53,149 nt of DNA from an uncultured Collinsella sp. Lineage in GTDB: Bacteria > Actinomycetota > Coriobacteriia > Coriobacteriales > Coriobacteriaceae. Under the pieces are notes generated by a model, which made no database searches, was not told the origin of the DNA, and saw only the letters and a list, made by a program, of their open reading frames with translations. Every line of letters begins with the position of its first letter. The stretch's first letter is position 1. The translations under genes were made by a program, and so were the position numbers. Below, piece by piece: positions 30,932 through 50,870 of the stretch. Location of the stretch: NCBI GenBank assembly GCA_900544425.1, contig UQUX01000001.1:1-53149 (forward strand), in the 5' to 3' direction.

Positions 30932-31936
30932 CTAGCGTACATCGCGCACCGTATCGCCCTCGACGAGCTCGCCCGGAAACAGCCTGTGCTCCACACCGGG
31001 CGCAACGCCCTCGGCGCCGGCAATCTTGTCGACCGCCCACATGCCGACGCGCTTGTTGTCAAAGCGCACCGTGGTCAGGCGACGGTCGGGCACGATATCG
31101 CCCAGGCTGTCATCAACACCCACCACACTCACGTCCTCGGGCACGCGCTTTCCGCGCGACTCGAGCCCGCGAATGCAGCCGTAGGCCATGGCATCGTTGG
31201 AGGCATAAATGGCCGTGCAGGTCGGATCATCCGCAAGCACCTGGCCGGCGGCATATCCACTCTGCGCCGTCCAGTCGCCACGGACGAGCTGCGGTGGCTC
31301 AATGCCATGCGCGCGCAATGTCTCGCGCCAGCCTTCCTCGCGCCGCATGCCCGAAAGCGAGCGCTCGGGACACGAGATAAAGTGCACGGTCTTGTGCCCC
31401 CGCTCCAGCAAGTACTCGACCACCTGGCGCGAGCAATCGAACTGGTCGTTATCGACCGTTGAACAGAGCGGGTGCTCCAACATCGTAACGAGCACCGTCT
31501 GCATGCCGGGCAGCGGCTCAAAAGTGCCAAAGTCTGCCGGCATGCGATTCATGATCACAACCATACCGTCCACTGGCAGTGCGCTCATGCGCGACGATGC
31601 GCTCTCGAGGGTATACGGATGCCCGTCTACTTTAGTGAGGGTGATGGCATAGCCGTGCTTATCGGCCGCGGCGGCAAAGCCCTCCATACGGTCGAGATTG
31701 CCGGTGCCGGTAATGTTGAACATGGCGACGCCGACGGTCTTAAACTTACCGCGGCGCAGCGATCGACCGGCAAAATTGGGGCGATACCCCAGCTCGCGCA
31801 TGGCGGCACGCACGCGTTCCTTGGTCTCGGGGCGCACGCTGGGCGAATCGTGCACGGTGCGCGAGACCGTCTGCTCCGAGACGCCCGCGAGGCGCGCTAC
31901 GTCTTTGACGGATACCGATTTTTTAACAGCGGCCAT
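30932..31936 (-). CDS. LacI-family regulator 2 (module 1)
   Basis: VKDVARLAGVSEQTVSR HTH; GDWT, SNDAMA, VPEDVSVVGVDD. Confidence 0.93.
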   Translation of the reverse strand: MAAVKKSVSVKDVARLAGVSEQTVSRTVHDSPSVRPETKERVRAAMRELGYRPNFAGRSLRRGKFKTVGVAMFNITGTGNLDRMEGFAAAADKHGYAITLTKVDGHPYTLESASSRMSALPVDGMVVIMNRMPADFGTFEPLPGMQTVLVTMLEHPLCSTVDNDQFDCSRQVVEYLLERGHKTVHFISCPERSLSGMRREEGWRETLRAHGIEPPQLVRGDWTAQSGYAAGQVLADDPTCTAIYASNDAMAYGCIRGLESRGKRVPEDVSVVGVDDSLGDIVPDRRLTTVRFDNKRVGMWAVDKIAGAEGVAPGVEHRLFPGELVEGDTVRDVR

Positions 31937-31951
31937 AGGTCGATCTTTCTA

Positions 31952-32268
31952 TGTCAACGATGCCATTGGTGGCACCTTGCGCAGTCATTTTTAACGCCTT
32001 CAAGTATATCCAACGCCTCCCCCACCATACGCTCACCACCCAAAACCTACCGTTCACCGACATTTTTGCTTCCCCGAACGGCTTTTGTCGCCCAAATGTT
32101 AACGTTGCCATTGTGCAAACACAGAGCCACCGGGCGGCTCAAACGTTTACGCGCAAGGAATCGACGGTCCACAGGCACAGGGGCCATCGGTTCGCGTCTT
32201 ATTTTGTGTCGCAAAATGGCAACGTCAACATTTTGGCGACAAAACGTCAAAAGCTACCATCGTTGCCA
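31952..32268. promoter_or_regulatory. LacI-type operators TGTYAACGTTGCCA (3-4 copies)
   Basis: 31952 TGTCAACGATGCCA; 32097 TGTTAACGTTGCCA; 32217 TGGCAACGTCAACA (inverted); partial at 32255. Confidence 0.7.
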
Positions 32269-32293
32269 ACCCACCGACTCTTAGGAGCTTTGC

Positions 32294-34069
32294 ATGGAGC
32301 AACTCATCGCCATCATCGAAAAGGGGCAGCCCTTTTTCAACGCGATCGCCCGCAACAAGTACCTCAAGGCGATCCGCGACGGTTTTATCTCCGTCATCCC
32401 CATCATCATCTTCTCGTCCATCTTCTGCCTGGTAGCCTCGGTTCCCAATATCTGGGGTTTCTACTGGCCCGATGACATCAACAACGCCCTGTGGAAGTGC
32501 TACAACTACTCCATGGGCATCCTGGCCATCGCCTGTGCCGCCACCACGGCCAAGCACTTCGCCGACGCTCAGAACCGCGATCTGCCCAAGAACAACCAGA
32601 TCAACTTCATCTCGTGCATGTGCGCGGCCATCATCGGCTTCTTGCTCCTTTCGAGCGACACGATCGCCACGGACGCTGCCAGCGGCTTCAACACCACCTA
32701 CCTTGGTTCCAAAGGCCTGCTGACCGCCTTTATCGCTGCGTTTGTGACCGGCATCATCTACAAGTTCTTCATTAAGCGCAACATCACCGTCAAGATGCCC
32801 GAGCAGGTTCCGCCCAACATCTCGCAGACCTTTAAGGACATCATCCCCTTCTCCGTCTGCATCACCGTCTTTTGGGTCTTTGACATCGCCTTCCGCGCTG
32901 CTTTTGGCTTCTGCTTTGCCCAGGGCGTCATCCAGGTGTTCCAGCCCCTGTTCACCGCTGCCGACGGCTACATCGGCCTCGCTGTGATCTACGGCGCTAT
33001 GAGCCTGTTCTGGTTCGTCGGCGTCCACGGCCCCTCGATCGTCGAGCCCGCCATCGCCGCCGCCCTCGTTGCCAACATGACCGACAACCTGGCTGCGTTC
33101 CAGGCCGGCCAGCACGCTTCCGCTGTCCTGACCCAGGGTGCCCAGTACTTCGTCGTCTGCATGGGCGGCACCGGCGCCACGCTCGTCCTGGTCTTTATGT
33201 TCTGCTTCCTGGCCAAGTCTCAGGAGATGCGCGCCGTCGGTAAGGCCGCCATCGTCCCCGTCTGCTTTGCCGTCAACGAGCCGCTGCTGTTCGCCGCGCC
33301 CATCGTGCTCAACCCCGTCTTCTTTGTCCCGTTTGTCTTTGCCCCGATCGCCAACATCTGGATCCTCAAGATCTTTATCGACTTCTTGGGCATGAACGGC
33401 TTTATGTACACCCTGCCTTGGACCGTCCCCGGCCCCATCGGCACCATCATGGGCCTGGGCTTCCAGCCGCTCGCTTTTGTGATGCTCGCCCTTATCCTGG
33501 TCGTCGACTTCGTTCTGTACTACCCGTTCTTCCGTGCCTATGACGCCCAGAAGTGCGCCGAGGAGGCCGAGATCTCCCAGGAGGAGCTCGCCGCCAAGAA
33601 CGCCGAGAAGGCCGCCAAGCTCAACGATGCCTTCCAGGGCAAGGCTGACGCCAAGAGCGTTGCCGCCGGCGCTGCTGCCGAGGCCGTGAAGGCCGACTCC
33701 CCCGCCGCTTCCGCAGCACCCGCTGCCGAGACAACGACCGCCAGCGACCTCAACGGCAAGCGCGTGCTCGTGCTCTGCCAGGGCGGCGGAACCTCGGGCC
33801 TGCTCGCCAACGCGCTGGCCAAGGCCGCCAAGGAGCGCGGCATTAACCTCGAGACCGCTGCCGAGGCCTATGGCAACCACGTGGACATGCTCCCCGACTT
33901 TGACCTGGTCGTCCTGGCCCCGCAGGCCGCAAGCTACCTGGCCGACCTGCAGAAGGACTGTGAGCGCGTGGGCAACAAGTGCGTCGCCTGCCGTGGCAAG
34001 CAGTACATCGAGCTCTCCCAGAACGGCGACAAGTCTCTCGCCTTCGTGAGTGAGCAACTTTCGAAGTAA
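32294..34069 (+). CDS. lacE: PTS lactose-family EIICB (module 1; most LacE-like)
   Basis: AIRDGF, FWFVGVHGPSIVEP, MGGTGATL, FAVNEPLLF; EIIB VLCQGGGTS. Confidence 0.92.
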   Translation: MEQLIAIIEKGQPFFNAIARNKYLKAIRDGFISVIPIIIFSSIFCLVASVPNIWGFYWPDDINNALWKCYNYSMGILAIACAATTAKHFADAQNRDLPKNNQINFISCMCAAIIGFLLLSSDTIATDAASGFNTTYLGSKGLLTAFIAAFVTGIIYKFFIKRNITVKMPEQVPPNISQTFKDIIPFSVCITVFWVFDIAFRAAFGFCFAQGVIQVFQPLFTAADGYIGLAVIYGAMSLFWFVGVHGPSIVEPAIAAALVANMTDNLAAFQAGQHASAVLTQGAQYFVVCMGGTGATLVLVFMFCFLAKSQEMRAVGKAAIVPVCFAVNEPLLFAAPIVLNPVFFVPFVFAPIANIWILKIFIDFLGMNGFMYTLPWTVPGPIGTIMGLGFQPLAFVMLALILVVDFVLYYPFFRAYDAQKCAEEAEISQEELAAKNAEKAAKLNDAFQGKADAKSVAAGAAAEAVKADSPAASAAPAAETTTASDLNGKRVLVLCQGGGTSGLLANALAKAAKERGINLETAAEAYGNHVDMLPDFDLVVLAPQAASYLADLQKDCERVGNKCVACRGKQYIELSQNGDKSLAFVSEQLSK

Positions 34070-34135
34070 GTAACGCCCAGGGCCAGCCGACCATCCAAGA
34101 CCGGCTGGCCCTTCGATTTAGACGATTGGATCATC

Positions 34136-35575
34136 ATGTCCGTTAATCCTGCTAGCGTCACCAACCCGCCCGCGCAGTTTCCCGAGGACTTTGTCTTTGG
34201 CGGCGCCACCGCTGCCTACCAGGTAGAGGGCGAGACCCGCACTCACGGTAAGGGCAAGGTTGCCTGGGACGACTTTCTGGAGGCCCAGGGGCGCTTCTCC
34301 CCCGATCCCGCTTCGGACTTCTACAACCAGTACCCCGTCGACCTGGAGCTGTGCGAGGAGTTCGGCATCAACGGCATTCGTCTCTCCATCGCCTGGAGCC
34401 GCATCTTCCCCAACGGCACCGGCGAAATCAACCCCGAGGGCGTCCAGTTCTACCACGATCTCTTCGCCGAGTGCCACAAGCACCACGTTGAGCCGTTTGT
34501 CACGCTGCATCACTTCGATACGCCGCTTCCCCTCTTTGAGAAGGGCGACTTCCTCAACCGCGAGACCATCGACGCCTTTGTGGACTTTGCCACCTTCTGC
34601 TTTAAGGAGTACGCCGACCAGGTGACCTACTGGTTCACCTTTAACGAGATCTGGGCCGACGCCTCCAACACCTACATCGAGGGCACCTTCCCCGGTGGCG
34701 TCAAGGCGCATCTGGCCGAGGCCTTCCAGTGCGAGCACAACATGATGCTCGCCCACGCCAAGGCAGTACTGGCCTTCCACAACGGCGGTTTTAAGGGCAA
34801 GATCGGCGTCATTCAGTCGCTGGAGTTTAAGTATCCGCTCAACGAGAACGACCCCGCCGACATCAAAGCCGCCAACAACGAGCACGTGCTGCAAAACCAG
34901 TTTTTGCTCGACGCCACCTTCCGCGGCGACTACGCACCCGACACCCTCGAGTGCGCCAACCGCCTGGCCGCCGTCTCGGGCGGCACCATCGAAATCCTGG
35001 ACGAGGACCTCAAGATTATGCGCGAAGCCGCGCTTTACAACGACTACCTGGGCGTTAACAACTACCAGTGCCGCTTCTTGAAGGCTTACGATGGCGAGAA
35101 CGACCTGCACCACAACGGCACGGGCGAAAAGGGCACCGGCCGCTGGCGCGTTAAGGGCATTGGCGAGCACGTGAACAAACCCGGCATCCCTACCACCGAC
35201 TGGGACTGGATCATCTATCCCGAGGGCCTGTTCGATCTGCTCGTCTACATTAAGCAGCGCTACCCCAACTACAAGCAGATCTTCATCACCGAAAACGGCA
35301 TGGGCTACAAGGACCCCTACAAGGACGGTTTTGTGGACGACCAGCCGCGCATCGACTACATCGAGCAGCACCTGCGCTGGCTGCTTAAGGCCATGGAGGT
35401 GGGTGTCAACGTGGGCGGTTACTTCCTGTGGAGCCTGCAGGATCAGTTCTCCTGGACCAATGGCTACAACAAGCGTTACGGCTTCTTCTACGTTGACTTT
35501 GAAACCCAGAAGCGAACGCCCAAGGCAAGCGCATACTGGTACAAGCACGTAGCGCAGACCCGTCGTCTGGACTAA
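34136..35575 (+). CDS. lacG: GH1 6-phospho-beta-galactosidase (module 1)
   Basis: FVFGGATAAYQVEG, TFNE, ITENG, WSLQDQFSWTNGYNKRYG. Confidence 0.92.
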   Translation: MSVNPASVTNPPAQFPEDFVFGGATAAYQVEGETRTHGKGKVAWDDFLEAQGRFSPDPASDFYNQYPVDLELCEEFGINGIRLSIAWSRIFPNGTGEINPEGVQFYHDLFAECHKHHVEPFVTLHHFDTPLPLFEKGDFLNRETIDAFVDFATFCFKEYADQVTYWFTFNEIWADASNTYIEGTFPGGVKAHLAEAFQCEHNMMLAHAKAVLAFHNGGFKGKIGVIQSLEFKYPLNENDPADIKAANNEHVLQNQFLLDATFRGDYAPDTLECANRLAAVSGGTIEILDEDLKIMREAALYNDYLGVNNYQCRFLKAYDGENDLHHNGTGEKGTGRWRVKGIGEHVNKPGIPTTDWDWIIYPEGLFDLLVYIKQRYPNYKQIFITENGMGYKDPYKDGFVDDQPRIDYIEQHLRWLLKAMEVGVNVGGYFLWSLQDQFSWTNGYNKRYGFFYVDFETQKRTPKASAYWYKHVAQTRRLD

Positions 35576-35621
35576 TGGCTGGCGGGGTTGCCCGCTCACA
35601 CAACCTGTCCCCATTTCTCAG

Positions 35622-35670
35622 CCGGGGGCGGCGCGTCACACGGCGCGCCGCCCCCGGTCTTTTTGTTTTT
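35622..35670 (+). terminator. Terminator after the module 1 GH1 gene
   Basis: CCGGGGCGGCGCG...CGCGCCGCCCCCGG followed by TCTTTTTGTTTTT. Confidence 0.8.
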
Positions 35671-35684
35671 GGGCTGGTCGGGAG

Positions 35685-35834
35685 CCGTTTGTCTCGATCT
35701 GTAACATCTAGCCGAGTTTTTTGGTCCTAGCTGTTACAGATTGAGACGAACAGGATTACTCTTTCCGAAGAATCTAAATCTGTAACACGTAGCCCGCTTT
35801 TGACCGTCTACCTGTTACAAATCGAGACAAACGG
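35685..35834 (+). repeat. Family B palindromic doublet (2 x TGTAACA-N25-TGTTACA, 81-bp period)
   Basis: TGTAACA 35700/35781, TGTTACA 35732/35813; outer 22-bp arms CCGTTTGTCTCGATCTGTAACA / TGTTACAAATCGAGACAAACGG. Confidence 0.9.
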
Positions 35835-35842
35835 AGTAGGAC

Positions 35843-36871
35843 CTAACCCCGTATGTCCCTAACAGTCGAGCGTTCGACCAGCGTACTCGGCACATGAATC
35901 GCCTCGATAGACGAGCTCTCTCCAATCGCCGCCTCAAACGCAAGCTTACCGACACCGCGCAAATCAAATCGCAGCGTCGTCAGCCGATTGTGAGGAACAA
36001 GTCCCTCGAGTGCGTCGTCGATACCAACCACGCTCACGTCGTCGGGCACGGACAGGCCAGCGTTCTCGAGCGCGGCGATAACGCCCAGCGCCATCTGGTC
36101 ATTTGCCGCAAGCACGGCAGTCGGCGCCTGCGACCCGCCGGCAAGCACCTCGGCCGCAATCCGCTCGCCCATGGCGTACCCACTGTCCGCACTCCAATCG
36201 CCGCGCAGCATCGGAGCGGCATCGACATGAGCACGACCCAGCGTATCGCGCCAACCGGCCTCACGAAAACGCGAGGAAATCGAGTTTTCCGGACCCGCCA
36301 CAAACCGCATATTCGAGTGACCATGTTCCAGCAGATAATTGGCCAACAGCTCGCACGAACCATACTGGTCGGAGTCGATCGTCGTGCAGCGCGGATGCGC
36401 ATACATGGACAGGATGACCGTTCGCACTCCCGGCTGGGGAACAAACTCCTCAAAATCGGGAGCCATGCGGTTCATGTTGAGAATCATGCCGTCGACGGGT
36501 CGCTCGACCATGCGGCACGAGGCATCGGCAAGTGCATAGGGCTTGTCGCCGCCCATCTCGATCATAGTGACGGCAAAATCGTGCTCGCGCGCCGCTTGCA
36601 TGATACCCTCGAGCGTCGCCAGGTTACCGACACGTGTGATGTTGTACATGCACAGGCCAATAGAACGATACGACCCGCCGCGCAACGCCGCTCCAGCAAA
36701 ATTGGGACGAAAGCCCAGCTCTTCCATGGCGGCCAGCACACGCTTGCGCGTCTTTTCCGTCACGTTGGGCATACCGTTGACCACGCGAGACACAGTCTGG
36801 CGGCTCACGCCAGCGAGCGCCGCAACCTCTGCCGCGCTCGACGAACGACCATTCCTTGTCTGCTGATCCAT
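35843..36871 (-). CDS. LacI-family regulator 3 (module 2)
   Basis: Probable start ATG 36871; EVAALAGVSRQTVSRVVN HTH; ANDQMA, VPDDVSVVGIDD. Confidence 0.9.
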   Translation of the reverse strand: MDQQTRNGRSSSAAEVAALAGVSRQTVSRVVNGMPNVTEKTRKRVLAAMEELGFRPNFAGAALRGGSYRSIGLCMYNITRVGNLATLEGIMQAAREHDFAVTMIEMGGDKPYALADASCRMVERPVDGMILNMNRMAPDFEEFVPQPGVRTVILSMYAHPRCTTIDSDQYGSCELLANYLLEHGHSNMRFVAGPENSISSRFREAGWRDTLGRAHVDAAPMLRGDWSADSGYAMGERIAAEVLAGGSQAPTAVLAANDQMALGVIAALENAGLSVPDDVSVVGIDDALEGLVPHNRLTTLRFDLRGVGKLAFEAAIGESSSIEAIHVPSTLVERSTVRDIRG

Positions 36872-36932
36872 GCCTTCCACGCTAACCTGCTTCCCAACTA
36901 TTCCCCGCGCCCATGGCGCATCGTACATACAT

Positions 36933-37099
36933 TGATAACGTGCTCATGATACCCGAGCCATATACCACAACATGAAAACTTCTGTCAATCAAAACCGCTT
37001 ACCGAACAAATACAACCGTTCGCGGCTGTTTGAAGTTGTTTGTTTCTATACATCCCAGCCGGATGTTAACGTGCTCATTGTCAAATGTTCACGTGCTCA
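36933..37099. promoter_or_regulatory. LacI-type operators TGTTAACGTGCTCA (3 copies)
   Basis: 36933 TGATAACGTGCTCA; 37064 TGTTAACGTGCTCA; 37086 TGTTCACGTGCTCA. Confidence 0.75.
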
Positions 37100-37214
37100 T
37101 TTTGGTTCTAATCATTTTAAGATAGTGTTTATCGGGCTTTTTCACCGCTGAACGCTAACCAGGGAGCCTCCTGAGCGCAAACGCACAATATCGAACAGCG
37201 AGACGAGAGGGTGT

Positions 37215-38663
37215 ATGCATATGTCTTTGCTAAACCGCGTACAGCAGCTGCCGAAGGGCTTTGTTTGGGGCGCCGCAACCGCCGCGTACCAAACGGAAGG
37301 TTCCACGAAGGTGGCAGGCAAGGGTAAGACCATGTGGGACGATTACCTTGTCGCCCAGGGTCGCTTTTTGCCCGACCCGGCCAGTGATTTCTACAACCGC
37401 TACGAGGAGGATATCCGCCTTTCTGCCGAGCATGGACTCAACGCCATTCGTGTGTCCATCGCCTGGACCCGCATCTTCCCCAACGGCGACGATGCCGAGC
37501 CCCTCGCCGAGGGCGTTAAGCACTACCACGAGCTGTTCGCCTGCTGCAAAAAGTATGGCGTCGAGCCCTATGTGTCCCTGCATCACTTTGACTCCCCCGC
37601 CGCCCTGTTCAACCAGGGCGACTGGCTCAACCGCAAGACCGTCGACGCCTATGTGCGCTATGCCGAGTTCTGCTTCCGCGAGTTCCGCGAGGTCAAGAAT
37701 TGGTTCACCATCAACGAGCTCATCAGCCTCTCGCACTCCCAATACATCCAAGGCAACTTCCCGCCCAACCATCACTTTGATGTGACGAGCGGCATCCAGA
37801 GCCAGCACAACGAGCTCGTTGCCCACGCCCGCGCCGTCAACCTGTATAAGGATCTTAACGAGACCGAGCACCTGGGCGGACGCATTGGCATGGTCAACGT
37901 CCTGACGCCGGCATATCCTGCCACCGACTCGCCCGCCGACCAGCACGCCGCCGACCTGTACAACGCCTTCTACACCGACTTCATCATGGACGGCGCCTTC
38001 CTGGGTCACTACTCCGCGCGCACCCTCTCACTCATCAACGAGATTCTGCGTGCCAACAACGCCACACTTACGGTTGAGGACAGCGACATGGAGGAGCTCG
38101 CCAAGGCGGCGCCCCGCAACGATATGTTCGGCCTCAACTACTATCAGTCGGCGTTTATCGCCGCCTACGATGGCGAGTCAACCAACAGCTTTAACGGCAC
38201 CGGAGACAAGGGCACCTCGTGCTTTAAGTTTAAGGGCGTCGGGCAGCAGGTCGATATGCCGGGTATCCCCACCACCGACTGGGATTGGCTCATCTACCCG
38301 CAAGGCCTCTACGACACGCTCAAGCACATCAGCGCCACCTATCCCAACCTCCCCGTCATCTATATCACCGAAAACGGCCTGGGCCACAAGGACCCCGAGC
38401 CCGACGCAAACGGCATCGTCGCCGATCCCGAGCGCATCGACTTTGTCGACCAGCACATGGAGAAGGTGCTCCAGGCGCGCGCCGAGGGCGTCGACGTCCA
38501 GGGCTACTTTATCTGGAGCCTGCAGGACCAGTTCTCGTGGGCCAATGGCTATAACAAGCGCTACGGCCTGTTCTACATCGACTTCGACACGCAAAAACGC
38601 TACATCAAGCAGTCGGCACTCTGGTACAAGGAGCTCGCCGACACTATGGCGGACGCGCAGTAG
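37215..38663 (+). CDS. lacG: GH1 6-phospho-beta-galactosidase paralogue (module 2)
   Basis: WGAATAAYQTEG, TINE, ITENG, WSLQDQFSWANGYNKRYG. Confidence 0.88.
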   Translation: MHMSLLNRVQQLPKGFVWGAATAAYQTEGSTKVAGKGKTMWDDYLVAQGRFLPDPASDFYNRYEEDIRLSAEHGLNAIRVSIAWTRIFPNGDDAEPLAEGVKHYHELFACCKKYGVEPYVSLHHFDSPAALFNQGDWLNRKTVDAYVRYAEFCFREFREVKNWFTINELISLSHSQYIQGNFPPNHHFDVTSGIQSQHNELVAHARAVNLYKDLNETEHLGGRIGMVNVLTPAYPATDSPADQHAADLYNAFYTDFIMDGAFLGHYSARTLSLINEILRANNATLTVEDSDMEELAKAAPRNDMFGLNYYQSAFIAAYDGESTNSFNGTGDKGTSCFKFKGVGQQVDMPGIPTTDWDWLIYPQGLYDTLKHISATYPNLPVIYITENGLGHKDPEPDANGIVADPERIDFVDQHMEKVLQARAEGVDVQGYFIWSLQDQFSWANGYNKRYGLFYIDFDTQKRYIKQSALWYKELADTMADAQ

Positions 38664-38839
38664 CGCATCGCCTCGCTTTCCCCCGAGAAGGGAGCGGCCC
38701 TATGCGATACAAACCCAGCCGCCCCCCTCTCTCCCCCTGGGACCGGCCCCGCCTGCACCCGGGCTTTTAGCAAGCGGGAGACCATATAGGTTTTCAACGT
38801 CCATGCCATTAAGATTTCATGCAAAGAGGAGCGTGAACT

Positions 38840-40600: not shown

Positions 40601-40632
40601 GACGCTGACACCACCTGCCGCTTGCAGACAAT

Positions 40633-40692: not shown

Positions 40693-40763
40693 CCTGTTCA
40701 TCTCAATCTGTAACATCTAGCCGAGTTTTCGGGTCCCACCTGTTACAGACTTAGACGAGCAGG
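40693..40763 (+). repeat. Family B palindromic unit (single)
   Basis: CCTGTTCATCTCAATCTGTAACA-N25-TGTTACAGACTTAGACGAGCAGG. Confidence 0.88.
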
Positions 40764-41784: not shown

Positions 41785-41916
41785 TGCTTCTCCACTCGGT
41801 TCTCTATCGCTTGTTTTTTGTGTTCTAGCATACACTACCTGCCTGACTGATAAATCAACCGTTTACCGGGCAATATCGACCGCTCACCCGTATATCCTTG
41901 TTGCTCTTCCAAAAAT

Positions 41917-41953
41917 GTCTTACGTTGTCATTAACGAAATGACAACGTTGTCA
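41917..41953. promoter_or_regulatory. LacI-type operators TGACAACGTTGTCA
   Basis: Perfect palindrome at 41940-41953; partial GTCTTACGTTGTCA at 41917; half-site CGTTGTCA over the lacI4 start. Confidence 0.75.
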
Positions 41954-42059
41954 TTTCGCAATGCCTTCCTTAAGCAGGAAGGCTTCCGGGCAGTCCTGAC
42001 CATCCATCGACGACCAGTTCCATCCACATGCATCGCGCATCAAGTAGCAAAGGAGCTTT

Positions 42060-43838
42060 ATGGACGCCATCGTAAAGATGCTCGAAAAGCATCAACCGTT
42101 CTTTGAGAAGATCTCGAGAAACATCTACCTCCAGGCCATCAAGGACGGATTCCTTGGGTGCATGCCCATCGTCCTCACCTCTTCGATCTTTCTGCTGATC
42201 GCCACGCTTCCCGGCGTGGTCGGCATCGCGCTGCCCCAGCCGCTCCTCGACTGGTGCAACAAGCTGTACAACTTCACCATGGGCGTCATGGGCATCATGG
42301 TTGCCGGCACCACCGCCAAGAACTTCACGGCATCCATGAACCGTCGTATGCCCGCCGGCAAAGTGCTCAACGACGGTTCCACTATGGTTGCTGCCCAGTG
42401 CAGCATGCTGCTGCTCGCAGTCACGCAGTTCAGCACCAAGTTCAACGGCTCCGAGCTTTCGGTCTTCGATTGCACCAGCATGGGCACGCGCGGTCTGTTC
42501 TCGGCCTATATCGCCGCGTTCATTACCGTGTGGGTCTATAAATTCTGCGTCTCGCGCGATCTGACCATTAAGCTGCCCAAGGAGGTTCCGGGCGCCATCG
42601 CTCAGAACTTCCGCGACATCATCCCCTTTGGCGGCGCCGTCATCATCTGCAGCATCATCGATGTCGTCGTGCGCAACCTCATGGGCGTTCCGTTCTCCGA
42701 GCTGCTTATCAAACTGCTCTCCCCGCTCTTTACCGCTGCAGAAACCTATCCTGGCCTTATCCTTATCCAGGCAGCCACCGCGTTCTTCTGGTTCATCGGC
42801 GTCCACGGCCCCTCGATCGTCCAGCCGGGCATCGACCCCATCCGTCTTGCCAACCAGGCCGAGAACCTGCAGGTTCTGCTGGCCGGTGGCCACCCCGCCC
42901 ACTCCCTCACCTTTAACATGTCGCTCGTGGGTGAGTTCGGCGGCACTGGCGCCACGTTCATCGTGCCGCTTCTGCTGATTCTCTTTATGAAGTCCAAGCA
43001 GCTCAAAGCCGTCGGTAAGGCCTCGATTGTTCCTGTTGCCTTTGCTGTCAACGAGCCGCTGCTCTTTGGCGCGCCGATGATCCTTAACCCCTACATGCTC
43101 ATCCCCTTTGTTGCCGCCGGCTGCGTCAACGTGAGTGTTGCCAAGTTCTTTATCGATAACGTGGGCATGAACGGCTTCTCCTTCGTGGTGCCTTGGGCCA
43201 CCCCCGCCCCCATCGGCATTTTCATCACCACGAACTTCCAGCTTATTGCCCTGGTATTTGTCGCGATCATCATCTTGCTGGATGCCATCATCTACCTGCC
43301 GTTCTTGAAGGCATACGATAAGCTGCTCTGCGACCAGGAGGCCGAGCGCGCCGCCGAGCTGGGTCTCGAGTCCGATGGTGCTGCCACCATCGCCGCCAGC
43401 ACCTCTGCGCCCGCTGCCGAGCAGACCGCCGCTGCCGTCGAGCCGACCGCCGCTGCCGCCGACAGCAAGCCTGCCGCCGAACAGCCCGAGCCTGCCGCCG
43501 ATGCATCCGCCAAGAAGGACGTCGATGGCCTGAAGGTCCTCGTCCTGTGCGCTGGCGCCGGCACCTCCGCCATGCTTGCCAACGCCATCAAGGAAGGTGC
43601 CGCGCAGACCGGAGAGAACATCGCTTCCTCCGCAGGCGCCTATGGCCAGCACACTGCCATCATGGATCAGTACGACGTTATCGTGCTTGCCCCGCAGGTC
43701 CGTAGCTACTACAACGACATGAAGGCCGACACCGATCGCCTAGGCATTAAGCTGCTCGCTCCGCGCGGCAAGGAATATATCGACCTTACCCGCGACCCCG
43801 CTGGCGCCATCAAGTGGCTCCGCGAGAACCTCGACTAG
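42060..43838 (+). CDS. PTS lactose/cellobiose-family EIICB (module 3)
   Basis: AIKDGF, FWFIGVHGPS, FGGTGAT, FAVNEPLLF; EIIB VLCAGAGTS; Ala/Pro-rich linker. Confidence 0.92.
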   Translation: MDAIVKMLEKHQPFFEKISRNIYLQAIKDGFLGCMPIVLTSSIFLLIATLPGVVGIALPQPLLDWCNKLYNFTMGVMGIMVAGTTAKNFTASMNRRMPAGKVLNDGSTMVAAQCSMLLLAVTQFSTKFNGSELSVFDCTSMGTRGLFSAYIAAFITVWVYKFCVSRDLTIKLPKEVPGAIAQNFRDIIPFGGAVIICSIIDVVVRNLMGVPFSELLIKLLSPLFTAAETYPGLILIQAATAFFWFIGVHGPSIVQPGIDPIRLANQAENLQVLLAGGHPAHSLTFNMSLVGEFGGTGATFIVPLLLILFMKSKQLKAVGKASIVPVAFAVNEPLLFGAPMILNPYMLIPFVAAGCVNVSVAKFFIDNVGMNGFSFVVPWATPAPIGIFITTNFQLIALVFVAIIILLDAIIYLPFLKAYDKLLCDQEAERAAELGLESDGAATIAASTSAPAAEQTAAAVEPTAAAADSKPAAEQPEPAADASAKKDVDGLKVLVLCAGAGTSAMLANAIKEGAAQTGENIASSAGAYGQHTAIMDQYDVIVLAPQVRSYYNDMKADTDRLGIKLLAPRGKEYIDLTRDPAGAIKWLRENLD

Positions 43839-43913
43839 CTCCTCCCTCTGTTGGTGCCCGAATCCCCAGTTCGGGCACCTCCCCCTATTCGTATCCCACA
43901 GAAAGGATGACTC

Positions 43914-45335
43914 ATGACCAACCCCATGCAGTTCCCCGACGGCTTTGTGTTTGGCGGCGCCACCGCCGCTTACCAGGTTGAGGGCGAGACCCGTACACAC
44001 GGCAAGGGCAAAGTGCCCTGGGACGATTTCCTGGCTGCTCAGGGCCGTTTCTCCCCCGACCCCGCAAGCGATTTCTACAACAAGTACCCGGTCGATATCG
44101 ACCTGTGCCAGCGCTTCGGCATCAACGGTATCCGTGTCTCCATCGCTTGGAGCCGTATCTTCCCCAACGGCACCGGCGAGATTAACCCCGAGGGCGTCGC
44201 CTTCTATCACGAGCTTTTTGCCACCTGCAACAAAGCCGGCGTTATCCCCTATGTCACGCTCGATCACTTTGACACGCCCGAGGCCTTCTACCAGGACGGC
44301 GGAGAGGGCTTCCTGACGCGCACGACGATCGACGCCTTTGTCGAGTACGCCAAGTTCTGCTTTGCCGAGTTCACCGAGGTCAAGTACTGGTTTACCTTTA
44401 ACGAGATTCCCGCGACCGCCGAGGGCAGCTTTATCGTCGGCAACTGGCCGCACGGCGAGAAGTATCGCCTGGACAAGGCCTTCCAGCTTATGCACAACAT
44501 GATGGTGGCCCATGCCAAGGCCGTCGTCGCCTTCCACGAGGGCGGCTTTGAGGGCGAGATCGGCATTGTCCAGAACCTGGAGCCCAAGTATCCCCTCGAT
44601 CCCAACAGTGCTGCCGACTGCGAGGCCGCCCGCATGGCCGACGTCATTAACAACCGCTGGGTACTCGACGCCACCTTCCGCGGCCACTATGCAGCCGATA
44701 CCATGGAGGCTGCGACCAAGCTGGCTCATATCGCCGGCGGCGAGCTCGACGTCCGCGACGAGGACATCGCCGCGCTGACCGCCGCGCTCCCCTACAACGA
44801 TTGCCTGGGCGTCAACACCTACAAGTGCCAGTTCCTGCGTGCCGCCGAGGGCGAAAACGACATCAACCACAATGGCACCGGCGACAAGGGCTCCTCGCGC
44901 TGGTTCCTCAAGGGCGTGGGCGAGTCATGCGTGCGCGAAGGCATACCCACCACCGATTGGGACTGGATCATCTATCCCGAGGGCCTCTACGACCTGCTGC
45001 TCCGCATTAAGAACGATTACCCCAACTACAAGAAGATCTACATCACCGAGAACGGCATGGGCTATAAGGACGACTTCGAGGATGGCTTTATCGACGACGC
45101 CCCTCGTATCGACTACATGCGCCAGCATCTCGCATGGATCCTCAAGGCAATCGACGGCGGTGTAAACGTCGACGGTTACTTTGTGTGGTCGCTGCAGGAC
45201 CAGTTCTCCTGGACCAACGGCTATAACAAGCGTTACGGCCTGTTCTACATCGACTTTGAGACCCAGAAGCGCTATCCCAAGGCGAGCGCGTACTGGTACA
45301 AGAACGTCGCGGAGACCGGCCTGCTTATGGCCTAG
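43914..45335 (+). CDS. lacG: GH1 6-phospho-beta-galactosidase paralogue (module 3)
   Basis: FVFGGATAAYQVEG, TFNE, ITENG, WSLQDQFSWTNGYNKRYG. Confidence 0.9.
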   Translation: MTNPMQFPDGFVFGGATAAYQVEGETRTHGKGKVPWDDFLAAQGRFSPDPASDFYNKYPVDIDLCQRFGINGIRVSIAWSRIFPNGTGEINPEGVAFYHELFATCNKAGVIPYVTLDHFDTPEAFYQDGGEGFLTRTTIDAFVEYAKFCFAEFTEVKYWFTFNEIPATAEGSFIVGNWPHGEKYRLDKAFQLMHNMMVAHAKAVVAFHEGGFEGEIGIVQNLEPKYPLDPNSAADCEAARMADVINNRWVLDATFRGHYAADTMEAATKLAHIAGGELDVRDEDIAALTAALPYNDCLGVNTYKCQFLRAAEGENDINHNGTGDKGSSRWFLKGVGESCVREGIPTTDWDWIIYPEGLYDLLLRIKNDYPNYKKIYITENGMGYKDDFEDGFIDDAPRIDYMRQHLAWILKAIDGGVNVDGYFVWSLQDQFSWTNGYNKRYGLFYIDFETQKRYPKASAYWYKNVAETGLLMA

Positions 45336-45357
45336 TTTCCGCCGCATGCCACCCGTC

Positions 45358-45405
45358 GGCCGCATACGAATCCCAAACCGGTTCGTATGCGGCCTTTTTG
45401 TTTTT
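45358..45405 (+). terminator. Terminator after the module 3 GH1 gene
   Basis: GGCCGCATACGAA...TTCGTATGCGGCC followed by TTTTTGTTTTT. Confidence 0.85.
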
Positions 45406-45421
45406 GGTGAGCCCGTGCAGG

Positions 45422-45568
45422 CCGTTTATCTCGATTTGTAACACCTAGCAAGGATTTTCGGCTCCAATTGTTACAGATTGAGATGAACGGGGGCATCCGG
45501 TTCGAAATATCTAGATCTGTAACATCTAACTCGCTTTTAGCCGTCTAACTGTTACAGATTGAGACGAT
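45422..45568 (+). repeat. Family B palindromic doublet
   Basis: TGTAACA 45437/45518, TGTTACA 45469/45550; same 25-bp spacer and 81-bp period. Confidence 0.9.
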
Positions 45569-45587
45569 TCGACGGTATCGTCCGCAT

Positions 45588-45613
45588 GGACACACCGTGG
45601 TACAATTGTGTCC
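45588..45613 (+). promoter_or_regulatory. TA promoter/operator: extended -10 between inverted repeats
   Basis: GGACACA...TGGTACAAT...TGTGTCC upstream of RBS AAGGAGGT. Confidence 0.6.
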
Positions 45614-45632
45614 CAACGCAAAGGAGGTACCC

Positions 45633-45899
45633 ATGTCAGCTTGTGTGCCCGTCCGAGATATGAAGGACACTGCTGCATTCACCACGCTTGTTGAGTCTGA
45701 GCGCGACGTCACCGTAACTAAGAACGGCTACGAGGCCATGCACTGCATCAGCAGCGACCAGTATCGCCTCATGCAAGAAGAAATCGCCAAGGCAAAACTG
45801 CTGTCTCGTATGATGTTGGCAGAAGACGAAATATCGCAAGGCGACTACAGCGACTACGAATCCTTCGCGGCTTCGATACGAGACAAATATGACCTATAA
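45633..45899 (+). CDS. Phd/YefM-family antitoxin
   Basis: 88 aa; PVRDMK...F...V......VTVTKNG pattern; acidic C-terminus; overlaps the toxin start. Confidence 0.8.
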   Translation: MSACVPVRDMKDTAAFTTLVESERDVTVTKNGYEAMHCISSDQYRLMQEEIAKAKLLSRMMLAEDEISQGDYSDYESFAASIRDKYDL

Positions 45900-46194
45900 C
45901 GTCGTAATCCTCAAAAGCGCGCGATATGAGTACGAGAGTATTGTCGGATACCTTGCTCAAATCCTTAAGAATCCGCGTGCAGCAGGCAATTTTGTCGCTG
46001 AGTTTGAATATCAGCTTGATCTGCTTCGCGAGCAGCCGCTCCTACGTCCCCTCTCGCACATGCAAGAGCTGGCGGCACGTAATTACCGATCGTTTCCCGT
46101 CAACAACTACGTGTGCCTTTACAAGCTTGAGCACGAAACAATCTATATCGCCCACATCTTTCATCAGTCACAGGACTACGCCCGCCTGGTCTAG
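45889..46194 (+). CDS. RelE/ParE-family toxin
   Basis: 101 aa; Y.V.I..SA......I..YL, NP.AA, YRSF.V.NYV.LY, IYIAHIFHQSQDY. Confidence 0.82.
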   Translation: MTYNVVILKSARYEYESIVGYLAQILKNPRAAGNFVAEFEYQLDLLREQPLLRPLSHMQELAARNYRSFPVNNYVCLYKLEHETIYIAHIFHQSQDYARLV

Positions 46195-46223
46195 CCCACA
46201 AGCTGAATACTTGGCCCGAGCAC

Positions 46224-46340: not shown

Positions 46341-46392
46341 GTGAAGCGGTAACCCCGCGCTGGCAAGGGCAAAAGTCCTCCTGCAGCGTTAG

Positions 46393-46788
46393 CTAGCAGA
46401 TGACCTGCGTGTGCTCCTCGATGGCGACACGATCCTCGGCGGTAATACCCGGCTCGCACACCACGGCGTCCAAACTGTCCAGGCGGCAGAAAGTGTAGAA
46501 GCCGCGCCTGCCGATCTTGCTGGAGTCGGCGATGAGGCAGCGCGTATCGGCCTTGCTAAAGACGAGCTGCTGGATGCGGCCCTCGTCCATGTTGGACGTG
46601 GACGCGTCGCCGTCCAGAATGCCGTTGGCACCGATAAACGCCGTGTCAATCCCTAGTGCGCGCAGGGTATCCTCGGCCGTGGGCCCCACAAAGGCGGCGG
46701 TGCGGCGGCGGTACATGCCGCCCACCAGGCATAGCTCGCAATCCTCGCGCGCCTCGAGCAGGCTAAAGGCCGAAAGCGAATTGGTCAC
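46393..46788 (-). pseudogene. 5'-truncated duplicate (3' half) of the DeoR/LacR gene
   Basis: Colinear with 50987-51382 (roughly 90% nt identity by eye); lacks the HTH and start; several amino-acid changes. Confidence 0.92.
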
Positions 46789-46880
46789 ATAGATGGAAGT
46801 CAGCTTGTCGGTGACTCGGAGAGCGCCAATGCGATCTCACGACGGCTGCGCTCATTGTCTCAATTAGCTACTCAACGAAA

Positions 46881-46916
46881 TACGGCCCCGCAGCTCAATA
46901 AGCTGCGGGGCCGTAC
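46881..46916 (-). terminator. Terminator-like hairpin after the module 4 EIICB gene
   Basis: TACGGCCCCGCAGCT-CAATA-AGCTGCGGGGCCGTA. Confidence 0.7.
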
Positions 46917-46950
46917 TATACACCGACGAATCAACGACGGAGTGCATCCA

Positions 46951-48645
46951 CTATTTGGCCAGCTCCTGAACGATCCAGTCAATTGCACCTTCGGGATCGT
47001 TGGTAAGGTCGATATACTCCTTGCCCCTTGTGGTGAGCAGTTTAATTCCAAGGCGATCGGTATCGGCCTTCATAGCGTCATAGTACATGCGTGCCTGGGG
47101 CGCCAGAACAATCACGTTGTACTGATCCATCGTATCATAGTGGCTTCCGTACGCACCGGACTGAGAAACCAGATCAATACCCTTAGCAGCGGCGCCTTCG
47201 CGAAGAGCATTTGCCAAGAGAGTCGAAGTGCCGGCACCCTGGCAAAGCACAAGCACGCGGATCTGCTCCGCCTTGTCCTTTACCGCCTCGAGAGCTTTTG
47301 CGACATTTTCCTGTGCGGCAATAGCATCTGCATCCGAGGTTCCTGCAGTCTCCTTTGCAGACTCTTCCAAACAAAGCTGATGGTCATACGCCTTGCAGAA
47401 CGGATAGTAAATCACAAAGTCAACGACCAACAGCACCGCAATCAATACAAGAGAACGTACATCAAGACCTGTGGTGAGGAATGCACCGATTGGGCCGGGA
47501 AGCGCCCACGGCATGGTATACATGGGGGCGTTCATTCCAATTACGTCAATGAAAAACTTACCGATTATAGCGTTGACCATAGGAGCCGCTAGGAAGGGCA
47601 CGAACATATAGGGATTGAGAACAATCGGCATACCGAAGAGAACGGGCTCGTTAACTCCAAAAATCACCGGGATAATCGATGCCTTGCCCATGGCTTTAAG
47701 CTGCTTGGAACGCATAAACATGATCAGGATAATAGGAACGATGAACGTGCAGCCAGAACCGCCCAGACCGCCGATGAAGTTTGTAAAGTCCAGCGCGAGA
47801 GCAATTGACGGGTGTCCACCTGCTTGGTAAACCGCAAGATTGGTAACGGTATTGTCGTAGAGCGCAGCATTGATCGGAGTCATGACAACCGAGGCACCGT
47901 GAATGCCCATAAATTGGAAAAGTGCGACCGCGCCCTCGATAAGCGCCATGCCAGGATAGGTGTCGACCGCGGAGAACAGCGGCGAGATAAGAGCGGATAC
48001 CAAATTGGCGAACGGCACAGCAAGCAGCTTACGGCTCGCAAGATCGATAAAAGCGCACGCAAGGATCGAAAACCCAAACGCAAAGATATCGCGAAAACTC
48101 TGCGCAATAGAGCCAGGGACCTCTTTGGGGAGCTTGATCGTCACATTATGGCTAATGCACACCTTATAGATATTAACGGTCAAGAATGCGGATACGAACG
48201 CAGCGATAAAACCCTTGGTTCCCATGTAGCCGGTTTCAAAAACAGACGTATCTGCTCCGCCAATCGAGACAACATCGTTCGTCACCGATAGCAAGAACAT
48301 GCCGCACATGGCGCAAACCATGCACGAGGTGGGGTTGAGAGATTTGCCCGAAGGCATGCGGCGGTTCATCGACTTGGCAAGTGAGCTCGCCGTGGTGCCG
48401 GCCACCATAATGCCAAGAAGTCCCATGGTATATGCATAGATTTTATTGAAGAAATCCAGTACCTCAGACGGAAGCGCGATGCCTACATAGGCAGGGAGCG
48501 TCGAAAGAAGAAGGAACAGACTCGAGAACAGCACAATTGGCATATTCGAGAGAAAGCCATCCTTAATCGCCACCAGATAAATGTTCCTTGAGATTTTGTC
48601 GAAGAGGGCCTGGTGTTTTTCAAGGAATTTGACGATAGCGTCCAT
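46951..48645 (-). CDS. PTS lactose/cellobiose-family EIICB (module 4, lower GC)
   Basis: Start ATG 48645 (RBS AAAGGA); AIKDGF, FMGIHGAS, LGGSG, FGVNEPVLF; EIIB VLCQGAGTS. Confidence 0.92.
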   Translation of the reverse strand: MDAIVKFLEKHQALFDKISRNIYLVAIKDGFLSNMPIVLFSSLFLLLSTLPAYVGIALPSEVLDFFNKIYAYTMGLLGIMVAGTTASSLAKSMNRRMPSGKSLNPTSCMVCAMCGMFLLSVTNDVVSIGGADTSVFETGYMGTKGFIAAFVSAFLTVNIYKVCISHNVTIKLPKEVPGSIAQSFRDIFAFGFSILACAFIDLASRKLLAVPFANLVSALISPLFSAVDTYPGMALIEGAVALFQFMGIHGASVVMTPINAALYDNTVTNLAVYQAGGHPSIALALDFTNFIGGLGGSGCTFIVPIILIMFMRSKQLKAMGKASIIPVIFGVNEPVLFGMPIVLNPYMFVPFLAAPMVNAIIGKFFIDVIGMNAPMYTMPWALPGPIGAFLTTGLDVRSLVLIAVLLVVDFVIYYPFCKAYDHQLCLEESAKETAGTSDADAIAAQENVAKALEAVKDKAEQIRVLVLCQGAGTSTLLANALREGAAAKGIDLVSQSGAYGSHYDTMDQYNVIVLAPQARMYYDAMKADTDRLGIKLLTTRGKEYIDLTNDPEGAIDWIVQELAK

Positions 48646-48748
48646 AACACATCCTTTCATGATTCCCGGGCACACAACGATTTATCCGGACTCAACCGTC
48701 GTCGTCCCCGTTTGTATCCACGTATGTAAGTGAATACGTTCTTGTGCG

Positions 48749-48952
48749 AAATGTAATATCATTTGCGCGATTTGTCATAACCAATTCTTTTTCCGCTTTG
48801 TCGATATGTCAAGAATTCAAATACTTATTCGGTGAACGGTAGTTGATTAATATAAGGTTTTCCCAGCTAAAGGCCATTTTTTCCGAGCAGTACAATAAGT
48901 TTGCAACCGTTCACCGATTGGATATAACATATTTAATATATTGTTGTAACAA
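48749..48952. promoter_or_regulatory. Divergent AT-rich promoter region with candidate GntR operators (TGTTATAACA-like)
   Basis: AAATGTAATATCATTT 48749, TGTCATAACC 48773, GGATATAACA 48920, TTGTTGTAACAA 48941; AGGTATAACC also just upstream of gntR. Confidence 0.5.
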
Positions 48953-49001
48953 TATTAGTGACGATGTCACAAGCCTGTCGTTCTAGTCAAAGGAAGTAAC
49001 A

Positions 49002-49922
49002 ATGCCCAAACGATTACTGAACATGTCCGCATCCGATTTTGCCACCACGTCACCCATGGATCTAAAGCAGGCAATTCTGGCCTCCGAGGGACGTACCATC
49101 ATGGCGGAAAACGTACCCTCTTCCCAATTTCTCAGCGGCGTTACTAATGCAGAAATCGAACGTGCCGCAGGTGCCGACCTGCTTCTGTTTAACGCGTTCG
49201 ATGTGTTCGATCCAGTTATTGCCGGTATTCCAGATGATCTCAATGAAAACCCGGTCACTTGGGTGAAGCGAGCATGCGGAAGGCCGATTGGCGTCAATCT
49301 GGAGCCAGTTGATAACGAGGCAGAGATGTCTGAATCCCGTACGGAAATCCCCATGGGTCGTCGCGTCTCTCCCAAGACCTTAGAAAAGGCTAACGAACTC
49401 GGATTTGATTTTATCTGCCTGACGGGCAACCCTGGAACTGGCGTCTCCAACGATGCGATTGCCCATTCAATCAAACTCTCCAAAGAGCATTTCAATGGCC
49501 TGATCATAGCCGGAAAAATGCATGGAGCGGGCGTTGCGGAACCTGTCATGACGCTCGAAATAGCGCGCGAGTTTGTTGACCTCGGTGTCGATATCCTTCT
49601 GGTGCCAGCCCCCTACACCGTCCCCTGCTTCCAAGAAGCAGACCTGCGCGCCATCGTAGACTTTGTACGATCCTACAACGTAGGCAAGTCAATTGAAGAG
49701 AAGGTTCTCGTCATGGCGGCGAACGGGACGAGTCAAGACTCTTGCGACAGCGAGACCATTAAGAAAATAGGCCTTGCAGCAAAAGCAGCCGGCGCTGACC
49801 TCCAACATATCGGGGACTCCATGAACGGTATTTGCCTGCCCCAGAATATCTTCACGCTCGGACAAGCCCTTCGTGGATACAGGCATCAGATTATCATGCT
49901 GAGCCGCTCTGTGATACGTTAA
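49002..49922 (+). CDS. Uncharacterised protein, probable (beta/alpha)8 barrel enzyme
   Basis: 306 aa, RBS AAGGA; eight short hydrophobic strands (TIMAE, LLLFN, IGVNLE, FICLTG, IIAGK, ILLVP, LVMAA, LQHIGD) separated by helical-looking segments. Confidence 0.8.
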   Translation: MPKRLLNMSASDFATTSPMDLKQAILASEGRTIMAENVPSSQFLSGVTNAEIERAAGADLLLFNAFDVFDPVIAGIPDDLNENPVTWVKRACGRPIGVNLEPVDNEAEMSESRTEIPMGRRVSPKTLEKANELGFDFICLTGNPGTGVSNDAIAHSIKLSKEHFNGLIIAGKMHGAGVAEPVMTLEIAREFVDLGVDILLVPAPYTVPCFQEADLRAIVDFVRSYNVGKSIEEKVLVMAANGTSQDSCDSETIKKIGLAAKAAGADLQHIGDSMNGICLPQNIFTLGQALRGYRHQIIMLSRSVIR

Positions 49923-49976
49923 GGTTACCTTGCCCACGTTACATCCCGACTGAGGCAACCATCAGGTATAACCAAC

Positions 49977-50714
49977 ATGCAAACTGAGGCTCTAATGCTC
50001 GATACACACGAAAAACGGCCACTCTATTTACAGCTCACCGACGCGCTGCTCAAGCAGATCGTTGATGAATATCAAGCAGACGATAAACTTCCAACAGAAA
50101 TGGAACTCTGCGACGAATACGCCGTAAGCAGAACAACCGTCCGACTTGCCATGAGTGAGCTGGAGCGTCGTGGAAGTATCTATCGAATCCAAGGTAAGGG
50201 ATCGTTTGTTGCACCGAAACGCGTTAGCGAGCTCAATTCACTTTTAGACTTTGACTTTGCAAGCCATTGCGATGGCGTTGATCCGGATGCCATCACCAAA
50301 CATTTCGGCGGCCTCACATCAGGTCGTCCAATTTCTGTAATGATGCTCCAACAATTTGGATGTCAAAGTCGCGATGAAATTCAGCGTCTTGAATTGACCT
50401 ACGAACTTGAAGGCAGCTTCATAGGCGCTGATACGTTCTTCATTTCAAAGTCGCGCGTTCCGAATAACCAGTTAGATTTTCAGGCATTTAGCAGAATCAT
50501 GGACGACTTGTCCAAGTCTATCCAATCTGTTAGGGAAAGCTATAGAGCACGTCAGCTTAGCGATTCCGAAGCCAGCAATTATGGTGTTGCAAAACTTCCG
50601 GTCATCGAACTGACTCATTATGCTTACGACTCCGGAGGCAAACTAATCTCAATTGTCTGCCGCACCGTCTTAACTGGGCGGGTCCCTTATCAAAACTTTA
50701 TTTTCAAGTCCTAA
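49977..50714 (+). CDS. GntR-family (HutC/UTRA-type) regulator
   Basis: [38 protein letters not shown]; ~245 aa. Confidence 0.88.
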
Positions 50715-50727
50715 TGTTCTTTTTCTT

Positions 50728-50870
50728 TTGTCTCGATCTGTAACACGTAGCCGAGTTTTTAAGTCCTAACCGTTACAGATCGAGACAAACAAGGTAGACC
50801 CCACCGAATTGTCTCGATCTGTAACATCTGACTCGCTTTTGGCCGCCTAGATATCACAGGTTGAGACGAT
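50728..50870 (+). repeat. Family B palindromic doublet
   Basis: TGTAACA 50739/50820; CGTTACA 50771; degenerate TATCACA 50852. Confidence 0.88.

Follow-up and report, generated by a model that had tools for sequence, protein, structure and literature searches.

How did one sugar-uptake locus come to hold several regulator-transporter-hydrolase modules side by side, and what part do the palindromic repeats between them play in their gain and loss? The question is raised by a 53,149-nt stretch of DNA from an uncultured Collinsella sp. (GenBank assembly GCA_900544425.1, contig UQUX01000001.1, positions 1 to 53,149), referred to here as the window, in which short arrays of a repeat unit stand at the borders of modules centred on phosphotransferase system (PTS) transporters. 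An earlier note, made from the letters of the window alone, had proposed that such cassettes come and go through the repeats; our comparisons confirm the observation itself and lend partial support to the cassette interpretation. Probably, the repeats are a dispersed intergenic family specific to Collinsella, and the modules were gained, lost and duplicated by recombination in arrays that act passively. Collinsella, a common genus of the human gut, comprises a great many closely related species with different sugar use, and the PTS locus would offer one concrete route by which their beta-glucoside PTS repertoire expands and contracts, recombination in short repeat arrays duplicating or removing whole modules.

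The modules and arrays lie in the following order, their gene content being taken from a Pfam scan of every called gene in 28.3-53.0 kb of the window.

30932..35575, module 1: LacI 30932-31936 (-), PTS EIICB 32294-34069 (+), GH1 34136-35575 (+).
35688..35834 (+), array 1: units 35688-35754 and 35771-35834; flanked by the module 1 GH1 gene and the stop codon of the module 2 LacI gene.
35843..40600, module 2: LacI 35843-36928 (-), GH1 37215-38663 (+), EIICB 38840-40600 (+).
40697..40763 (+), array 2: one unit, flanked by the module 2 EIICB gene and the stop codon of the module 3 LacI gene.
40774..45335, module 3: LacI 40774-41835 (-), EIICB 42060-43838 (+), GH1 43914-45335 (+).
45425..45571 (+), array 3: units 45425-45491 and 45507-45571; after the GH1 gene of module 3 and directly before a toxin-antitoxin pair.
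46951..50714, module 4: EIICB 46951-48675 (-), DUF7916 49002-49922 (+), GntR 49977-50714 (+).
50727..50873 (+), array 4: units 50727-50791 and 50808-50873; flanked by the module 4 GntR gene and the 3' end of a DeoR gene.

Three modules of LacI (on the minus strand), PTS EIICB and GH1 were confirmed by Pfam, the gene order being swapped in module 2; of the four PTS modules originally described, the fourth is unlike the others, and its GC content at third codon positions (GC3) is 0.46-0.59 against ~0.8 elsewhere. Repeat finding and an nhmmer profile give seven units, in three doublets and one single unit. Exact matches to TGTAACA-N25-TGTTACA number five in the window, compared with none in each of 100 shuffles, and the right arm of the seventh unit (50808-50873) is degenerate. 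All seven centres are 25 bp long with TTTT on the plus strand, and the spacing is exactly 81 bp in all three doublets, so that the units, centres and period first reported from the letters are real. The two spacer subtypes said to recur in every doublet hold only loosely in the one at 45425. No further unit was found by nhmmer on the window's contig; the other convergent gaps are thus without the repeat family, as had been observed.

In 31 genomes of the genus a single contig carries both flanks of the locus, 5.7-24.1 kb apart. Fifteen of the 31, picked to span the range of locus sizes, were compared, which together with the genome of the window (G000) makes 16. Module 1 was present in all 16 of them, module 2 in eight, module 4 in five and the toxin-antitoxin pair in ten; module 3 was complete in 12 genomes, and two more hold a 13% fragment of its LacI gene (LacI3). 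An array of one to four units stands at every module junction in the 16 genomes, and where modules 2, 3 and 4 are present or absent, the junctions lie in or at arrays. Crossovers fell inside units. The first unit in G060 is a hybrid, in which the left flank of the module 1 array is followed by the right flank and later units of a G051-type array between modules 2 and 3, while G065 has one single hybrid unit that joins the left flank of the module 1 array to the right flank of the array between modules 2 and 3. Likewise, the single unit of array 2 in G000, at a position that holds one to four units in relatives, consists of the left flank of unit 1 and the centre and right flank of unit 4 of the G020 array. 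These hybrid units show that the loss or gain of module 2 and the change in unit number happened by recombination between units. The outgroups G015 and G050, which are without the repeats, were considered as a source of the ancestral state, and their loci proved too differently arranged.

For module 4, the structure of the locus points to recombination through DeoR and array homology rather than to clean site-to-site insertion, because the left boundary of this module is a duplicated DeoR fragment.

45597..46194 (+), toxin-antitoxin pair: weak Phd-like open reading frame (ORF) 45597-45899 and ParE 45889-46194 (Pfam), directly after array 3.
46379..46788 (-), truncated DeoR copy (3' part), ~90% identical to 50973-51382; left boundary of module 4.
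50987..51751 (-), full-length DeoR regulator; conserved right flank of the variable locus.

The toxin-antitoxin pair and the truncated DeoR copy, whose ORF encodes 131 aa (46393-46788), precede module 4, and the pair lies inside the array region as the earlier note had it. It is one of a set of variable low-GC genes found beside the last array, the others being Fic, AAA_14/DUF4143, Schlafen-AlbA_2/HATPase_c_4 and EcoRII with DUF2326, and in most carrier genomes these have an array on one side only. A reading of the repeats as cassette boundaries is limited by the left edge of module 4 and by the toxin-antitoxin, Fic and Schlafen-like inserts, which are mostly one-sided.

We propose that the arrays of the PTS locus were copied together with the modules during tandem duplication of the latter, since homology runs through the arrays. 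They would then serve passively as short patches of direct homology, and unequal or homologous recombination between units, by an enzymology that we infer, would delete or duplicate whole modules and change the number of units. The arms of the units would most likely be double-stranded DNA half-sites for a putative protein, rather than a selected hairpin.

This last idea comes from the anatomy of the unit, which is 59-69 bp long and has the consensus WWTGTCTCRATCTGTAACA-NN-TAG-N6-TTTT-N6-CTA-NN-TGTTACAGATYGAGACAWW. Inverted arms of 17 bp, TGTCTCRATCTGTAACA and its complement, both nearly invariant, enclose a 25-bp centre that retains only TAG, a T/A run and CTA. Across 330 distinct units drawn from the loci of a public-genome scan, on which all these statistics are based, arm conservation was 95-100% and the centres were variable; near-invariant arms beside randomised centres argue for continuing constraint on the arms. 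Arrays of the family contain one to five units at a period of 80-81 bp (start-to-start spacing of 80 bp in 118 pairs, 81 bp in 78 and 79 bp in 7), and because the centres are unrelated among the units of one array, the arrays did not arise by recent tandem copying. At polymorphic arm positions the two arms vary independently, with no pairing covariation: positions -1/45 are paired in 177 units (164 expected), positions -2/46 in 217 (222 expected) and positions -6/50 in 173 (177 expected). The best pair of centre positions is Watson-Crick in just 52% of units, and since G:T and A:C are equally common at polymorphic arm positions (76 and 75 units), neither strand is preferred. Given this lack of covariation at polymorphic arm positions, selection appears to target spacing and the sequence of each arm rather than pairing, and the conserved arms would fit either paired half-sites in double-stranded DNA or ends resembling terminal repeats. 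The absence of covariation fits the earlier suggestion that fixed geometry with sequence drift reflects a protein, and half-sites under such strong constraint imply a DNA-binding partner. Positions 10 and 34, the first and last bases of the centre, are complementary in 54 units, below the 109 expected by chance; the prevailing combinations are G with A, in 88 units, and T with C, in 64. Because these are the same state on opposite strands, the unit is inherently asymmetric, independently of the direction of the T run. Substitution rates of arms and centres were also sought in aligned orthologous arrays and were uninformative, the species being too little diverged.

Within the window, the repeats do stand only at module boundaries. 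In the genome to which it belongs, a draft of 1.95 Mb in 209 contigs, the nhmmer profile gives 36 units in 15 arrays of one to four units on 11 contigs, and 11 of the 15 arrays lie outside the PTS locus, beside mutually unrelated genes of housekeeping type: coaX, an OYE oxidoreductase, an M16 peptidase, an integrase with tRNAs and tuf, dxs, glgP, malK, a glpD-like gene, thiD, a Ser/Thr kinase with an FHA protein, a DEAD helicase, prfC and gltB. Nor are the arrays restricted to convergent gaps, six being convergent, six divergent, two tandem and one of unknown context. With one mismatch or none, the pattern occurs in 22 of 24 other genomes of the genus (18-58 matches each), the same-genus genomes G014 and G015 being without a match, and is absent from all 16 genomes that represent other genera of the order. 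The public-genome scan returned at least 119 stretches, and the titles of the 80 listed name Collinsella in 70 cases, 'uncultured bacterium' in eight, 'bacterium' in one and Acutalibacteraceae in one. Array positions are stable and unit number changes: an array between tRNA-Met and the OYE gene was found at all 30 loci compared, with three, four or five units, and no insertion polymorphism of an array was seen in 30 kb of synteny among nine genomes. Several contigs of G000 end at arrays, which break short-read assemblies. The family appears to be undescribed, full-text searches having found no account of it and Rfam no match; at a permissive threshold, Rfam gave chance-level matches only in 30-53 kb of the window, none of them on units. 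Table S3 of PMC8040213, on palindromic candidate RNAs from gut microbiomes, might include the motif.

Of the proposed gain and loss of cassettes, then, the junctions at arrays in 15 relatives and the hybrid units stand, while the arrays are not specific to modules and variability is also found in gaps that hold no array. Nine such gaps have breakpoints among nine genomes within the array-free 30.9 kb of the window. Several points weigh against recombination in purely passive arrays. The 15 genomes compared were chosen by locus size rather than drawn at random. Arrays 1 and 2 share no exact match longer than 24 bp, and an exact match of this length is at the lower limit for RecA-type recombination. 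No protein that binds the arms was identified, and the hairpins of the units are predicted to be stable (z = -4.6 to -8.0, with folds on both strands), which leaves room for a role as single-stranded DNA or RNA. All four array gaps of the window are variable, against 11 of the 35 array-free gaps (hypergeometric p = 0.017, the gaps not being independent); two further array loci vary too, and the arrays may therefore do more than provide passive homology. At such loci, a Schlafen-like gene in the tRNA-Met array of G013 and a sugar module beside the tuf-locus array of G021 have no obvious vehicle.

L213 (G013:C15:26000-31000) 1394-3640, Schlafen-AlbA_2/HATPase_c_4 gene inside the tRNA-Met|OYE array.
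L212 (G021:C1:1223000-1231000) 2769-6582, RpiR-GH1-EIIBC module between the tuf-tRNA cluster and the array.

The 1.8-kb Schlafen-like gene of G013 stands within the array, with two units to its left and four to its right, and the left flank of the array is partly repeated on the right side of the gene; G005, G057 and G068 have the same coordinates as G013. The same locus holds an 8-kb insert in G003 and a classical 17.8-kb tRNA island in G004. Transfer of the Schlafen-like gene from array to array was considered and rejected, as the copies at the tRNA-Met and PTS loci share only a 38-bp match. At the tuf-tRNA locus, coordinates indicate ~4 kb between the array and the tRNAs in about 11 of 40 genomes; G021 has an RpiR-GH1-PTS EIIBC module of low GC3 there that is not in G000, and about ten genomes beyond G021 have the same coordinates.

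Such loci bear on the idea of a dedicated site-specific recombination, in which a recombinase, transposase or nuclease encoded elsewhere would bind the arms and exchange the modules that arrays flank. Half-sites conserved at fixed geometry and free of pairing covariation are what this idea would lead one to expect, as is the variability of all four array gaps. Arrays flank other short segments besides the PTS modules, among them an AbiEi-like gene, Nramp, an AAA_16 gene and a Ser/Thr kinase, and the Schlafen-like gene of G013 and the second sugar module of G021 can be read in the same way. Genes of IS110 type exist on other contigs of G000, as do RAYT-like genes, and the same hypothesis has been published for the NIME arrays of Neisseria (PMC1797815). 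We nevertheless consider dedicated site-specific recombination doubtful. The Pfam scan found no recombinase at the locus, and the genome-wide PF00589 search found no tyrosine recombinase on the window's contig (its matches lie on C144, C130, C9, C63 and C36), which bears out the earlier remark that no integrase is in view. No recombinase gene adjoins any of the 15 arrays save an island integrase 288 bp from the array on C9; the G000 island with this phage-type integrase (L003, C9, 1-2798) is specific to G000 at that site and ends ~133 bp outside the array, and its first 485 bp recur in or near the tRNA-Met locus of four other genomes. Moreover, G060 and G065 differ in junction structure, most carriers of module 4 or of the toxin-antitoxin, Fic and Schlafen-like inserts lack units on at least one side of the insert, the Schlafen-like genes found at two array loci are different DNA, and array-free gaps are variable as well.

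It is likewise improbable, in our estimation, that the arrays are dedicated landing pads at which a protein binding the paired half-sites promotes the exchange of array-flanked genes, both sugar-uptake modules and genes of defence type such as Schlafen-like, Fic, toxin-antitoxin and restriction genes. Were it true, the system would be a Gram-positive counterpart of the recombinase that was proposed, and never proven, for the Neisseria NIMEs. Candidate proteins for such a role are the products of an AbiEi-like, weakly DUF559-like gene of 364 aa and two RAYT-like Y1 proteins.

L042:5004-6098, 364-aa gene, with orthologues in L048, L070, L083, L085, L101, L105, L117 and L132.
G000 C62:2973-3998 (L154), RAYT-like Y1-domain ORF, NF047646 38 bits.
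G000 C49:11418-12215 (L155), RAYT-like Y1-domain ORF, NF047646 58 bits.

The 364-aa gene has arrays on both sides in at least nine species. Substitutions at its three codon positions (55/46/150) indicate that it is coding; both strands are open for more than 360 codons. The protein has a weak DUF559 match (E = 0.024), and its AbiEi likeness comes from an Atlas feature match; a homology search returned close Collinsella orthologues labelled hypothetical only, and a PDB sequence search gave no match. Close orthologues occur in most genomes of the genus, and the gene was not found in G000, whose assembly breaks at the locus. Both RAYT-like ORFs score below the curated NF047646 cut-off of 80 bits, and they do not adjoin units, nhmmer having found none on C62 or C49. 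In the C62 protein the motifs are altered at the places where an HUH motif and a catalytic tyrosine would be expected, and the C49 protein keeps both; the former recurs as a 348-aa frame in 12 of the 16 genus genomes listed. A phyletic link to the repeats was sought for the AbiEi-like gene and for the 348-aa Y1 frame, and both track the repeat-bearing clade, which is uninformative because any clade-specific gene would show the same distribution.

The Y1 proteins also enter into a second alternative, in which the units would be selfish, non-autonomous elements (MITE- or REPIN-like) mobilised by a transposase in trans; the arrays would then have no role of their own, and their coincidence with module junctions would have been inherited through duplication. 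Inverted arms resemble terminal inverted repeats, which need not pair, and the family is dispersed in intergenic DNA and confined to one genus. This explanation is unlikely, however. No insertion polymorphism was seen in the 30 kb compared among nine genomes, and the tRNA-Met array is present at 30 of 30 loci. In the one whole genome searched for a parent element, none came to light: solo arms with three mismatches or fewer number 47, against 38 for a reversed control motif, and so stand at control level. Nine intervals between neighbouring arrays, out of 22, were scanned and contain no transposase. The Y1 proteins, present with 38 and 58 bits, fall under the cut-off and away from the units, and near-invariant arms beside randomised centres imply a constraint that continues.

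The arrays might also act at the level of RNA.

35621..35668 (+), strong intrinsic terminator of the module 1 operon, upstream of array 1.
45358-45404 (+), second strong intrinsic terminator, upstream of array 3.

The LacI stop codons lie only 9-11 bp away from arrays 1 and 2, and the short gaps between contain no minus-strand site resembling a terminator. RNA libraries X15, X16, X19 and X20 are available as assembled contigs, in which strand, ends and expression level are not readable; X19 and X20 yield short, low-depth contigs from array 1 into LacI2, a weak hint, whereas the contigs of X15 and X16 are long and evenly covered and possibly DNA. Apparent joints between arrays in X19 and X20 were rejected as evidence of excision, their anchors of 20-59 nt fitting any unit. 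Long hairpins in the 3' untranslated regions of LacI genes, serving as stabilisers, terminators or small RNAs, are a very unlikely reading of the units. Both strands are predicted to fold stably, but pairing covariation is absent, the equality of G:T and A:C favours neither strand, divergent promoter gaps hold six of the 15 arrays, no Rfam match on the units approaches its threshold, and the X-library contigs show neither strand nor ends nor expression level.

Under recombination in passive arrays, which remains the preferred reading, the Collinsella arrays would work like the NIMEs of Neisseria or the BIMEs of E. coli. NIME arrays of Neisseria, in which dRS3 repeats (ATTCCC-N8-GGGAAT) flank RS elements of 19-214 bp, have been proposed as a substrate for homologous recombination or for recombination by a specific recombinase (PMC1797815). 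They are the closest published analogue of the Collinsella arrays in their working, not in membership, because sequences and geometry differ. Both systems have short conserved inverted repeats that separate variable segments in intergenic arrays, and in both, array positions are kept between genomes while unit number changes and neighbouring genes vary; this combination was found here with one to four units at the PTS locus and three to five at tRNA-Met. The Collinsella consensus is without the dRS3 motif, its geometry is fixed (25-bp centre, 80-81 bp period) in contrast to variable RS elements, and its genomes hold tens of units rather than hundreds. A phage or IS110-type recombinase is not known to target the Collinsella units.

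The units also share features with the REP/BIME sequences of enterobacteria and pseudomonads, being extragenic palindromes clustered into arrays. REP/BIME arrays often follow the ends of operons, are substrates for duplication and deletion, and are associated with RAYT transposases. The Collinsella unit is longer, at 59-69 bp, and conserves sequence, not pairing; no cognate RAYT gene flanked by units was found, and where the REP form is a functional stem-loop, stable folds are predicted here, yet pairing at polymorphic arm positions is not above chance. The MIRU of mycobacteria are intergenic tandem repeats of 40-100 bp at tens of loci, with copy number varying between lineages. The Collinsella arrays are likewise dispersed intergenic repeats of variable copy number in an actinobacterial genome, differing in that their units are palindromic, with centres that differ within an array. 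They differ from CRISPR in that the arms alternate in orientation and the centres keep TAG, a T run and CTA; cas genes were not searched for.

The resemblance to attC-delimited arrays drawn in the earlier note does not hold up in any defining feature tested. The units are indeed ~60-bp imperfect palindromes at the 3' ends of gene units and have one orientation at the locus. The attC core sites have the consensus RYYYAAC (R'') and GTTRRRY (R'), whereas the Collinsella arms have CTGTAAC and GTTACAG, each of which fails in at least one position. The locus is without IntI, attI and Pc. An attC site conserves structure and varies in length, while the Collinsella unit conserves sequence at a fixed length. 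Its arrays hold one to four units, the modules carry their own regulators and terminators, and the family is scattered throughout the genome.

The array-free part of the window has variable features of its own. Two low-GC3 genes (16017-16955 and 17012-17635, in the segment 15995-17640) are missing at the same site in four of nine relatives. The window contains at least two other families of dispersed intergenic repeats, each with 20-50 matches on other contigs: a ~35-bp palindrome around AACGACTAGTCGTT at 30190-30228 (region 30181-30306) and an inverted repeat at 30236-30305. Further sites with such repeats are 25542-25766, 6256-6614, 7745-8023, 11191-11353 and 19857-19899, and the other dispersed repeats lie in four of the array-free variable gaps of the window. 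Its last 68 bp (53082-53149) are 94-97% identical to other contigs in many genomes of the genus, away from the syntenic locus, and may be another repeat or a conserved small gene.

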